From Chitinophaga pinensis (GTDB lineage Bacteria; Bacteroidota; Bacteroidia; UKL13-3), in the NCBI GenBank assembly GCA_943369665.1, contig CALRNX020000003.1, forward strand, positions 6,907 through 70,906: 64,000 bases of DNA, in the 5' to 3' direction. The notes under the pieces were generated by a model. It saw only the letters and a list, made by a program, of their open reading frames with translations. It was not told the DNA's origin and did not search any database. This document shows positions 51,918-54,715 of this stretch, in pieces; position 1 is the stretch's first letter, and every line of letters starts with the position of its first letter. The translations under genes were made by a program, and so were the position numbers.

Positions 51918-53174
51918 ATGAAAAACTTTTTTCAATATATATTATCATTTGCAATAGTTGGCTCCGTTGCCGTTTCTGTTGAAGCACAGCGTGTAACCAT
52001 ACCTGCCGATGAGCAGCAATTGGCCCTTATTGATAGCAATACCATTAAGTGGCGCAATAAGTTGTACCCTGAAATTGCACAGGGTGATTTGAATATTTAT
52101 GGGTTTGAGCAAACGGATGTGCCTATTTATGCCGATTCTGTTTATGCATACCGATTGGCTGTATTGGAATCGGAGATTCCGCTCGAGTACAATGAATATG
52201 TACGCCCTTATATCGACCTGTATTCGATCAGGAGACGTAAGCTTACCAGTAAAGTATTGGCCTGGAGTCAATATTATTTTCCAATGTTTGAAGAAGCATT
52301 GGACAGGGCCAATATGCCAATGGAGTTAAAATATCTTGCCGTTATTGAGTCGGCATTGAATCCAAGCGCTACCTCTCCTGTTGGTGCTGCCGGTATGTGG
52401 CAGTTTATGGCTCCAACGGGCAGGATGTATGGATTGAAAACCACGGCAGCTTATGACGAAAGACGTGATGTTCAGAAATCGACCGAAGCCGCTATTCTGT
52501 ATTTGCGTAATTCTTATCGGATTTATGGCGACTGGTTGTTGGTTATTGCATCATACAATTGCGGTCCGGGTAATGTGAACAAAGCGATCCGTAAAGCAGG
52601 CGGGGTCAAGAATTTTTGGGCGATCCAACAGTATTTACCTCGTGAAACCAGAGGGTATGTTCCTGCATTTATTGCAGCAACGTATGTGATGGAATATGCT
52701 TCTGAGCATAATATTTATCCGAGTGAAGAGGTTCAGTTTGTGAAACATACGGATACAGTGATGGTGGATAACAGCTACTCGCTAAATCAACTTGCATTAA
52801 AGTTAAACATGAGCGTTGATGAATTAAAAGCATTTAACCCAGCTTTGCGCAAAGGTATTATCCCGTTTAACAATGAGAAAATAGCACTGACACTTCCTTA
52901 TAATAAGGCGATTGCATTTACGAACGCCAATGCCGATACGGGTTTCAGAAACAAAATGAATACGGAGGCGATTGCGTTAAACAAGCAGATCCAAACGGAG
53001 AAAAAAGGAATTCCCGCTCAAACCACCTACAAGGTACGCAGGGGCGATGAGCTTGCAAGCATTGCCAAGAAGTATGATGTAACAGTAAAAGATATTAAGC
53101 GTTGGAATCACCTCAAAGGAAATAAAATAATGGCTGGCCAGAAACTCAAAATTAAGCCGACCAATAAAGGATAA
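51918..53174 (+). CDS. Lytic transglycosylase (SLT domain) with C-terminal LysM, MltD-like
   Basis: Signal peptide. SLT catalytic block LKYLAVIESALNPSATSPVGAAGMWQFM. LysM module YKVRRGDELASIAKKYDVTVKDIKRWNHL. Confidence 0.88.
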   Translation: MKNFFQYILSFAIVGSVAVSVEAQRVTIPADEQQLALIDSNTIKWRNKLYPEIAQGDLNIYGFEQTDVPIYADSVYAYRLAVLESEIPLEYNEYVRPYIDLYSIRRRKLTSKVLAWSQYYFPMFEEALDRANMPMELKYLAVIESALNPSATSPVGAAGMWQFMAPTGRMYGLKTTAAYDERRDVQKSTEAAILYLRNSYRIYGDWLLVIASYNCGPGNVNKAIRKAGGVKNFWAIQQYLPRETRGYVPAFIAATYVMEYASEHNIYPSEEVQFVKHTDTVMVDNSYSLNQLALKLNMSVDELKAFNPALRKGIIPFNNEKIALTLPYNKAIAFTNANADTGFRNKMNTEAIALNKQIQTEKKGIPAQTTYKVRRGDELASIAKKYDVTVKDIKRWNHLKGNKIMAGQKLKIKPTNKG

Positions 53175-53177
53175 TAA

Positions 53178-53215
53178 GAAAGCTGAATTCATTATGTTGA
53201 GGTCAGCTTTTCTAT
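53178..53215. terminator. Possible shared terminator hairpin between mltD-like gene and the convergent cassette
   Basis: AAAGCTGA (53179-86), a 16-nt loop, TCAGCTTT (53203-10), followed by TCTATTCTT. A modest stem and a poor T-run. Confidence 0.4.
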
Positions 53216-53222
53216 TCTTAAC

Positions 53223-53594
53223 CTATTTTTTTATCAATACACAGTAAGAGTGGGATTGCCCATTATTAAGATTAATGTTAAATTCTAATATTCCTTCTTT
53301 TTCAAAAACGAAATTGCCAATGTTTAAGACTAATCTGTTTTTGTTTTTTCCTTGAAAGTTTAATGTGAAATTTTGAGACAATTTTTCTTCGTTAGCTAGT
53401 AAAACCCGTAAATTAAAGTCTTGTTCATCTGATTCTCCATTAGTCTTTTCAAGAAGACAGAAAAATGCTGATTTTTGAAGATTGGTTGGAAATTCTGGAG
53501 CGTTTATTTCCTCAATCATATTAATTAAAGATACTGTATTAGTTGCTTTGTCTACTAATACGCTTTCAAAAAGCCCGAGACTAATTACTTTCAT
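53223..53594 (-). CDS. Cassette gene 3: hypothetical 123-aa protein, no family recognised
   Basis: Its ATG overlaps the stop of the upstream gene (ATGA at 53594-53591). No TM segment or signal peptide. Looks beta-rich by eye. Very AT-rich coding sequence. Confidence 0.65.
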   Translation of the reverse strand: MKVISLGLFESVLVDKATNTVSLINMIEEINAPEFPTNLQKSAFFCLLEKTNGESDEQDFNLRVLLANEEKLSQNFTLNFQGKNKNRLVLNIGNFVFEKEGILEFNINLNNGQSHSYCVLIKK

Positions 53595-54001
53595 ATGGAA
53601 CTATGGCTTATTATTAGTTTGTGTGTATTATCTACCGGAACTGCCTGATGATTAACATTAACATCAATATTGGTTTGTGCTGTCGGCTCATTGATTATAA
53701 TGCTGATAACCTCTTTTGCCCAATATATATTCCTAACTGATAACAAGTCAATAGTTTTAAAGTTAAAGTCTCCTTTTATATATAATGAACCTATATACAA
53801 ATAGAATTTTTGAATATCTTCTATTTCAATATTTTTGTTTTTCAATAGATCATTTAATAATGATACTATTTTATCCGTACTATTCTGTTTTGAAAAGTCA
53901 TAACACACAGAACTATTCGTAACTTTTTTGAATAGAAAATATGGGACATTTGAATATAACAATGCCTCTGATATTTCTTTTAAGTTTATAGTCGTTGTCA
54001 T
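53591..54001 (-). CDS. Cassette gene 2: hypothetical 136-aa protein, no family recognised
   Basis: Its ATG (54001-53999) shares one base with the stop of gene 1 (TAATG). No TM segment or signal peptide. Asn/Ile/Lys-rich. Confidence 0.65.
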   Translation of the reverse strand: MTTTINLKEISEALLYSNVPYFLFKKVTNSSVCYDFSKQNSTDKIVSLLNDLLKNKNIEIEDIQKFYLYIGSLYIKGDFNFKTIDLLSVRNIYWAKEVISIIINEPTAQTNIDVNVNHQAVPVDNTHKLIISHSSI

Positions 54002-54597
54002 TACAGAGTTAAATTATGATTGATTTTATAAATAGAGTCAAAGTCGTACATCCTTTCGGGAAATACTCTGTAAAACTCTAATGTAGTATTCGCATTCCAA
54101 TAAAAGCAATATTGATGAGGATGTATAAGTTCATCGCCATTTCCCCATTTGCTAACTATTGTAAAGCTAAGATTTTCTTTTTGTATTACTATTCCACAAT
54201 GCACAAAAAAACCATTTTCCTTATAAATAATAACATCCCCAGCCATTACATGTTTTTCTGCAACTTTTCTATAGTTGTCATGTTTCAGAATATTTTCAAT
54301 GTCTTCATTCTCAAAGATCCTCGCTCTTCGTGACGCAAAAACTAGTCCAAGGCAGTTATAATAGCCACAAGGGCCGCTTCTAAGTTTTGCTAGAGGGAAT
54401 TTCTGCCGCATGTCCAATATAGTTTTCATATCATGAACTGACAAATCATCTGTAAAATGATTATTTGCAATACGCTCATCTCTTCTTGTCCTTAATTTAA
54501 TGGCGTCTTCCTGTTTTCCCGTGAGTAAATACATTTTTTGAATAGTAGGCTGTTCAAAACTAACAAAAAAAAGCAAACCCCAAAGCCAACGTGACAT
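54001..54597 (-). CDS. Cassette gene 1: candidate papain-fold (NlpC/P60/CHAP-like) Cys-His enzyme, 198 aa
   Basis: PCGYYNCLGLVF (Cys82) is followed by GDVIIYKENGFFVHCGIV (His133) and IVSKWGNGDELIHPH. An alternative start at 54534 (MYLLTGK) would remove the hydrophobic N-terminus WLWGLLFFVSF. Confidence 0.65.
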   Translation of the reverse strand: MSRWLWGLLFFVSFEQPTIQKMYLLTGKQEDAIKLRTRRDERIANNHFTDDLSVHDMKTILDMRQKFPLAKLRSGPCGYYNCLGLVFASRRARIFENEDIENILKHDNYRKVAEKHVMAGDVIIYKENGFFVHCGIVIQKENLSFTIVSKWGNGDELIHPHQYCFYWNANTTLEFYRVFPERMYDFDSIYKINHNLTL

Positions 54598-54715
54598 TTT
54601 TCACTTTTTATTTTATTTAGCTTTAGGACTTGATTCTGAATAATCAAAGAACGAATTATATATGTAAAATATTGGATACATTCTTCTAGTCAAAGGTTAT
54701 TTATACTATAGTATT

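Follow-up and report, generated by a model that had tools for sequence, protein, structure and literature searches.

What are the three small genes that sit between core genes on the minus strand of Chitinophaga pinensis contig CALRNX020000003.1, in the 64,000-nt stretch analysed here (the window)? A first-pass annotation had described them, at 53223-54597, as an orphan cassette of a small Cys-His enzyme with two partners that it could not assign to a family, and had read the unit as a possible defence or toxin-antitoxin module. We found that the cassette is not a lineage orphan and that it belongs to a triad that is both large and widespread. Its first gene is predicted to encode a papain-fold amidase or peptidase, and the three genes recur in the same order in several phyla. 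The triad is a credible candidate for a new anti-phage or conflict system, a mobile multi-gene cassette of uncharacterised families.

The cassette consists of three minus-strand open reading frames (ORFs), which the ORF list gives as gene A (54001..54597, 198 aa), gene B (53591..54001, 136 aa) and gene C (53223..53594, 123 aa). Direct reading of the DNA confirmed that the three are chained by overlapping stop and start codons, with the same coordinates as in the first-pass annotation. At the A/B junction, the minus-strand sequence TAATG (53999..54003) holds the TAA of A (54003-54001) and the ATG of B (54001-53999). At the B/C junction, the minus-strand sequence ATGA (53591..53594) holds the ATG of C (53594-53592) and the TGA of B (53593-53591). 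These overlaps point to translational coupling of A to B and of B to C. At the composition of the cassette, stop codons are expected to make up 8.5% of codons, and an open run of 123-198 codons has a probability of 2e-5 to 2e-8. When the cassette was shuffled, at least one ORF of at least 123 aa appeared in just 11 of 1000 shuffles. Homologues of all three products are also found elsewhere in the same order, and the three ORFs are beyond what chance would produce.

Independent loci of the A family were gathered by exact-protein look-ups, by pattern scans of genomes and metagenomes, and from IMG/VR. The genes A, B and C were assigned in these loci by hidden Markov models (HMMs) built from alignments, and on short contigs as much of the triad was assigned as the contig holds. 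The order A-B-C, on the same strand and with tight spacing, was found in 14 of the 15 independent loci. Across the triad loci the genes overlap by 4-49 nt or are separated by gaps of 1-35 nt; in the loci other than the window, the A/B junction has overlaps of 4 to 49 nt and the B/C junction has overlaps of 4-8 nt or gaps of 1-9 nt. Gene B is always directly downstream of A in the triads, and gene C is always the third gene. At locus L022 the B HMM was silent, and B is putative there, read by eye from the motif IANDPVFL in an ORF overlapping gene A at its end. At locus L012, gene B is short and weak. The sole locus with A alone and no B or C is L009 (4284-4835), on a high-G+C (guanine plus cytosine) contig. 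The A gene at L009 adjoins a PAS-HWE histidine kinase and carries an insertion before the catalytic His.

The triad was found in at least four phyla and on viral contigs. Its sources include the Bacteroidota of the window, a Syntrophaceae metagenome-assembled genome (MAG), a Melioribacter MAG, Leptospira saintgironsiae, high-G+C loci and two IMG/VR viral contigs, and the G+C content of the measured triad loci ranges from 29% to 62%. The distribution is patchy, and the flanks are different at every locus. An all-against-all BLAST of 43 neighbouring proteins revealed no recurrent fourth gene, and the triad is therefore a self-contained unit.

The A family accounts for most of what can be said about function. 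A word-indexed protein search with gene A returned only gene A itself and one relative with 46% identity, the corresponding search with gene C returned almost solely the query, and a search with the concatenated A+B+C alignment gave no matches. An exhaustive HMMER search seeded with gene A and its 46%-identity relative yielded 1203 representative proteins at E <=1e-3 and 642 at E <=1e-10, representatives being taken at the 50% identity level. With about 1200 such representatives and a triad present in several phyla, the description of the cassette as an orphan does not stand. Family members are nearly all stand-alone proteins of 150-200 aa, and most of the 90% clusters are singletons. Residue conservation was scored in an alignment of 134 homologues, in all of which C82, G84, R91, D121, H133 and K150 are invariant. 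A further set of residues (Y80, N81, R90, D107, Y109, G120, Y125, S149, W151, G152, E156, H159, Y166 and R177) is at least 90% conserved. The conserved motifs are YNC(H/L)GLxFASRR, PGDxxxY, H(S/C)G and SKWG, together with E156 and H159. Four polar residues, E156, H159, S149 and K150, are each at least 97% conserved and are, by their conservation, candidates for a third catalytic residue beside the His. A CX4C...HX4C zinc site in gene A was considered and rejected, as C77 and C164 are conserved in close relatives but not family-wide.

The Pfam scan of gene A gave matches below threshold only, to Amidase_5 (E 3e-3), NLPC_P60 and CHAP. When the members of the 134-homologue alignment were scanned one by one, they touched papain-like amidase families alone and never above threshold; the matches were to DUF7689 (15 members), Amidase_6 (8), NLPC_P60 (5), Amidase_5 (4), DUF1287 (4) and CHAP (2). 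Searches of gene A against PADLOC, NCBIfam and PHROGs gave nothing useful, and sequence and profile searches of the PDB returned nothing. An AlphaFold2 model of gene A, made with the 134-homologue alignment, had a mean predicted local distance difference test score (pLDDT) of 86.8, with values >93 for residues 30-180. In this model C82 opens the helix 82-87 (pLDDT >95) and H133 lies on the long central strand 130-141. The top Foldseek matches of the model in the PDB were E. coli Spr/MepS, CwlO and other NlpC/P60 enzymes, CHAP endolysins and the Gsp amidase, with a best E of 1e-2, a probability of ~1 and template modelling (TM) scores of 0.3-0.5. In BFVD, Foldseek retrieved CHAP and NlpC/P60 proteins, with a best E of 8e-4. 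A profile-sequence hhalign comparison of the A family with MepS, the MepS sequence being identical to PDB 8xud_I, was statistically weak (E 3e-3) and placed C82, the GD-hydrophobic motif and H133 of gene A in register with DCSG, GDLV and HVGIY of MepS. Together, these results suggest that gene A encodes a divergent papain-fold Cys-His amidase or peptidase of NlpC/P60-CHAP type, with C82 and H133 as the predicted catalytic residues, in agreement with the first-pass description of a small Cys-His enzyme.

Gene A shares with the NlpC/P60-CHAP amidases and peptidases, such as MepS/Spr, B. subtilis CwlO and phage CHAP endolysins, a predicted core with a catalytic Cys that opens a helix, then a PGD-hydrophobic motif and finally the catalytic His on a strand. 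In contrast to these enzymes, it reaches no Pfam gathering score, has its own conserved N-terminal segment, [IL]x[LV]xTRxGxxIxNxQ, and SKWG/E/H motifs, and is linked to two partner genes. Because all Pfam matches fall below the gathering score, the PDB searches were empty and the Foldseek matches were weak, gene A is a superfamily-level relative. It forms a separate family, uncatalogued in Pfam, at the edge of the NlpC/P60-CHAP superfamily with its Cys-His pair intact. The wall hydrolases of the superfamily also differ from gene A in their location signals. Neither a signal peptide, a lipobox, a signal-anchor-release (SAR) sequence nor a cell-wall-binding domain was recognised in gene A, and a holin-like partner was not seen. 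The product of gene A is therefore expected to be cytoplasmic.

Residues 1-21 of gene A (MSRWLWGLLFFVSF...) are missing from all homologues and have a pLDDT <50. The homologues start ~10-15 residues ahead of the conserved core, and their N-termini are polar. The true start is therefore more likely M22 at 54534, which would probably give a product of 177 aa. The N-terminal extension MSRWLWGLLFFVSFEQPTIQK (54535-54597, minus strand) is hydrophobic, specific to the window copy and modelled at low confidence. Either the start was called wrongly, or these 21 residues are an addition of this lineage with a possible effect on localisation.

For the products of genes B and C, which the first-pass annotation could not assign to any family, the outcome differed. 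None of the Pfam, PHROG, PADLOC and NCBIfam models matched gene B or its homologues (9 homologues), and B represents a new protein family. Its N-terminal domain of ~100 aa contains the motif (S/A)N(T/V)PxF(L/I) and an invariant Trp (W94) in the homologue alignment, and looks helical from its conservation pattern; a variable Ser/Thr/Asn-rich tail follows. Gene C, by contrast, was assigned to Pfam DUF6941 (PF22091), a family of uncharacterised function, with an E of 3.7e-10 and 40.7 bits against a cut-off of 27, over positions 12-120 of the 125 positions of the model. All ten aligned gene C homologues (10/10) match DUF6941, the best with an E of 1.5e-12. The alternating hydrophobic pattern of gene C suggests an all-beta protein. 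Gene C also has a weak match to phrog_5881, and a relationship to HORMA proteins was rejected, as it rests on a lone match with an E of 0.02. Sequence and profile searches of the PDB with B and with C gave no match to a solved structure. No signal peptide or hydrophobic segment at transmembrane (TM) level is conserved in the homologues of A, B or C, as had been noted for B and C in the window. A characterised housekeeping family was found for none of the three proteins. Our literature search found no paper mentioning DUF6941, PF22091 or DUF7689, and none on an NlpC-type defence effector.

Several triads lie among restriction and other defence genes. At locus L007 the order is RadC, a C5 methyltransferase, a Type II restriction enzyme (PADLOC 2e-66), an SDH-type ClpP-like protease and then the triad. 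At L017 a Type II restriction enzyme is directly downstream of the triad. At L024/L025 the triad is flanked by a C5 methylase, an MvaI_BcnI restriction enzyme and NOV_C to one side, and by SLFN_AlbA_2 and GmrSD_N to the other, a typical defence island. Restriction or GmrSD genes are thus adjacent in L007, L017 and L024/L025, and candidate defence genes are near the triad of L020, where DUF2726, the PADLOC candidate PDC-S33 and a protein weakly similar to SIR2 are found within 8 kb. The SDH-type protease of L007 (6772-7806), a 344-aa serine protease, separates the Type II restriction-modification pair from the triad. PADLOC gave no match to it, and it may be part either of the defence content of the island or of a mobile-element backbone.

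Other triads adjoin mobile or toxin genes. On an IMG/VR contig of a P2-like phage (L015), the triad is beside a DksA-like gene and a portal gene, which are followed by terminase and scaffold genes, and it sits among unannotated small ORFs of the phage accessory region. In P2-like phages the interval from gpA to the portal gene gpQ is a documented hotspot of anti-phage systems (PMC9122126). As gpA itself is off the fragment, the placement of the triad is consistent with this hotspot rather than proven. Elsewhere the triad lies between RusA and HicA (L013), abuts an IS-type (insertion sequence) transposase (L005) or faces a Fic gene (L022). Locus L012 (5700-7650), on a 390-kb contig, encodes a 266-aa A-domain protein with an N-terminal extension, followed by a short B-like ORF and a C homologue. 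Its surroundings contain dozens of small ORFs with no Pfam match and a ribonucleotide reductase gene nearby, and the contig may belong to some very large mobile element, such as a jumbo phage.

In the window, the cassette is compositionally foreign. Its G+C content is 30.7%, compared to 41-42% in the flanks, and its G+C content at third codon positions is 24-29%, compared to 38-43% for pcm, the MltD-like gene, tsaD and an oxidoreductase gene. The neighbours are those given in the first-pass annotation, namely a PCMT gene (pcm), which lies upstream and is read in the same direction, and an SLT+LysM (MltD-like) gene that converges on the cassette. TsaD, TamB and a GFO/IDH/MocA oxidoreductase are encoded beyond these immediate flanks, and Por_Secre_tail-domain proteins, an indication of Bacteroidota, are encoded on the same contig. 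An AT-rich spacer of 118 nt (54598..54715, minus strand) separates the stop of pcm from the first ATG of A; the distance to M22 is 181 nt. This spacer is the likely site of a promoter of the cassette's own; the sigma-70-like matches within it are generic and no more frequent than shuffles would give, and a terminator scan between pcm and gene A found none. An imperfect inverted repeat (53173..53216, not assigned to a strand) with 19-nt arms, 79% complementary, and a 6-nt loop lies where gene C and the MltD-like gene converge, between their stops. This hairpin may be a bidirectional terminator shared by the two genes; the consensus terminator scan did not call it. No direct or inverted repeats marking an insertion were found to flank the cassette, and there is no integrase or tRNA insertion site near it. 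Scans of the whole 64-kb window (1-64000) for tRNA genes, and for Rfam families at the gathering score, were empty.

Since the A-B-C linkage is maintained, no fourth gene recurs, the distribution is patchy, the neighbours include defence and mobile genes, the composition in the window is foreign and A is a plausible effector, we favour the explanation that the cassette is a copy of a self-contained, horizontally mobile three-gene conflict module. Its role would most likely be anti-phage defence or abortive infection, and we give this explanation as a whole an even chance of being correct. Restriction systems, GmrSD, prophage accessory regions and low G+C strengthen the earlier suggestion of a defence or toxin-antitoxin role, while the defence output itself is something that we infer. 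In the proposed mechanism, gene A would be the effector, a cytoplasmic papain-fold enzyme that cleaves an amide or peptide bond by means of its Cys82-His133 pair. Gene B, with a putative helical domain and disordered tail, and gene C, the predicted DUF6941 beta protein, would be produced in fixed proportion via translational coupling. Probably the two would bind A, either keeping it inactive or directing it, the regulatory roles being conjecture. A trigger such as infection would then free the activity of A against a host or phage target, candidate substrates being cell-wall precursor peptides, an isopeptide or a phage protein. Known small operons such as CalpL-CalpT-CalpS and bacterial gasdermin with its protease launch their response when a peptidase acts on a partner encoded alongside it. 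By analogy, the disordered tail of B is a conceivable substrate of A; cleavage of B or C is pure conjecture. The triad differs from these protease-triggered modules in having no homology to their proteases or substrates and no recognisable cyclic-nucleotide sensor or pore-forming protein.

Several observations weigh against a conflict module. Recognised defence genes are beside the triad in just ~4 of the 13 informative loci, a sample that is small and non-random. Housekeeping genes are the neighbours in the window, L004 and L010, and pcm, the MltD-like gene, dnaG-rpoD and a DEAD helicase are examples from the housekeeping-flanked loci. No match of A, B or C was found in PADLOC-DB v2.0.0 at E up to 1, leaving the triad with no tie to a validated system. 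When homologues of A and C were compared by tblastn with 50,697 GenBank phage genomes, no triad was found, and in IMG/VR the triad is rare (2 contigs); further IMG/VR scans with B and with single proteins returned only already-known contigs. The triad was likewise absent from the 72,556 plasmids of PLSDB in a tblastn search with A and C homologues, the exception being a distant single-domain relative. The window copy of gene A departs from its family next to the catalytic Cys. Position 83 (codon 54349-54351) is Leu in the window copy and its closest relative, L001, compared to His in 124 of the 134 members, so that NCHG becomes NCLG, and this Leu-83 subfamily may have altered catalysis or specificity. 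Many candidate defence cassettes exist.

The plasmid exception (L018, 5329-6375) is WP_172711468.1, a 348-aa hypothetical protein of Flavonifractor plautii plasmid NZ_CP095095.1 that is encoded with no B or C beside it. Its C-terminus forms a distant A-like domain (E 6.5e-8 with a local HMM), and the plasmid also has a YoeB/RelB toxin-antitoxin pair. This protein shows that fusion of the A domain to other modules is possible.

The alternative that survives best is a toxin-antitoxin or addiction module that chiefly stabilises mobile DNA. In it, the product of gene A would poison the cell as a cytoplasmic amidase, for example by destroying cell-wall precursor peptides, with B and/or C serving as neutralising antitoxin and as regulator or chaperone. 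This would suit a compact, coupled operon of small proteins with a mobile and patchy distribution that needs no fourth gene. The enzyme comes first, as in reverse-order type II toxin-antitoxin systems, and other toxin-antitoxin genes, the HicA and Fic genes of L013 and L022, adjoin the triad. A three-component precedent is provided by omega-epsilon-zeta/PezAT, operons in which the zeta toxin, a kinase, poisons peptidoglycan precursor synthesis. They share with the triad the plan of a coupled and mobile three-gene operon, would also share an enzyme toxin with small neutralising and regulatory partners, and may be a precedent for a cell-wall-precursor target. However, the protein families are different, the gene order of the triad is reversed, with the enzyme first, and no DNA-binding regulator is recognisable in B or C. 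Pfam scans of both proteins and their homologues found no helix-turn-helix, ribbon-helix-helix or AbrB domain of the kind that antitoxins use to bind DNA, and apart from DUF6941 in C no Pfam domain was found. The isoelectric points of A, B and C show no consistent acidic/basic pairing of the kind seen between toxin and antitoxin, and the absence from plasmids counts against an addiction module, since such modules are common there. The alternative also overlaps with defence, as many toxin-antitoxin systems act in defence. We consider stabilisation of mobile DNA unlikely as the chief role of the triad.

A second alternative is that the amidase encoded by gene A serves housekeeping or a niche metabolism, with B and C as its accessory subunits and with no role in conflict, acting for example in the cytoplasmic turnover of murein peptides or of gamma-glutamyl or isopeptide compounds. 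Cytoplasmic NlpC/P60-CHAP relatives with metabolic roles exist, and the Gsp amidase is among the Foldseek matches of gene A. The housekeeping flanks of several loci, the window included, and the occurrence of A at L009 with no B or C would also agree with such a role. Its difficulty is with distribution and linkage. The triad is sporadic across distant phyla with flanks that are never conserved, its A family consists mostly of singleton clusters, its composition is foreign in the window, and it occurs on viral contigs and inside restriction and defence clusters. In addition, the comparison of neighbours revealed no linked transporter, regulator or pathway gene in any locus. Because of the sporadic distribution, the singleton clusters and the lack of a linked pathway gene, we regard a metabolic role as improbable.

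More improbable still is a phage-derived function, either a lysis module of an endolysin and its helpers or a counter-defence or takeover enzyme, that survives in chromosomes as prophage remnants: the closest structural matches of gene A include many phage CHAP and NlpC/P60 endolysins, gene C has its weak PHROG match and the triad is present on two IMG/VR contigs and the phage-like-looking 390-kb contig, but no holin- or spanin-like TM protein is conserved, there is no signal or SAR sequence, the P2-like phage carries its triad amid unannotated small ORFs, in an accessory region by the portal gene, phage genes are missing from the surroundings of most loci, and the GenBank phage genomes gave no match. 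It is the lack of a holin or signal sequence, the absence from GenBank phages and the accessory-region position in the one P2-like phage that disfavour this function. A lysis cassette in particular was rejected, as gene A has no signal or SAR sequence and no wall-binding domain, and no holin accompanies it.

A type VI secretion system (T6SS) effector-immunity pair was also rejected, as no T6SS genes were recognised among the called neighbours of any locus and no signal peptides are present. In the T6SS pairs Tse1-Tsi1 and Tae4-Tai4, an NlpC/P60-type amidase toxin is encoded beside small partners that block it. The immunity proteins are all-beta or all-alpha and have signal peptides, and the effectors act in the periplasm. 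The likeness to the triad may lie in the combination of an amidase with small partners and in immunity folds that resemble those predicted for C and B. The triad differs in that it has no secretion signals and no sequence similarity to these pairs, and Hcp, VgrG, PAAR and other T6SS-related Pfam families are absent from the called neighbours in every locus. The T6SS pairs, omega-epsilon-zeta and the protease-triggered modules appear to be the closest analogies to the triad in logic, and none is homologous to it.

Returning to the mobile conflict module, a more specific form of this proposal is that the triad is a previously unrecognised anti-phage immune system, in which two new families, B and DUF6941, would control a cytoplasmic NlpC/P60-like amidase effector. 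The route of action would be new as well, for example the cleavage of a phage protein or the breakdown of cell-wall precursor peptides when infection occurs. We put this forward tentatively, as a possibility about which we are doubtful. To our knowledge, a cytoplasmic NlpC/P60-like amidase effector is absent from other described defence systems, and this effector class is not in the PADLOC models that we searched. The triad is small, self-contained and found in very different hosts, which makes it directly testable by cloning, with the C82/H133 pair as a loss-of-function control. Should the triad prove to act in defence or conflict, it would add a widespread, compact module of ~1.3 kb with a cytoplasmic papain-fold amidase effector, and would provide the first functional context for Pfam DUF6941 and for two wholly uncatalogued families.

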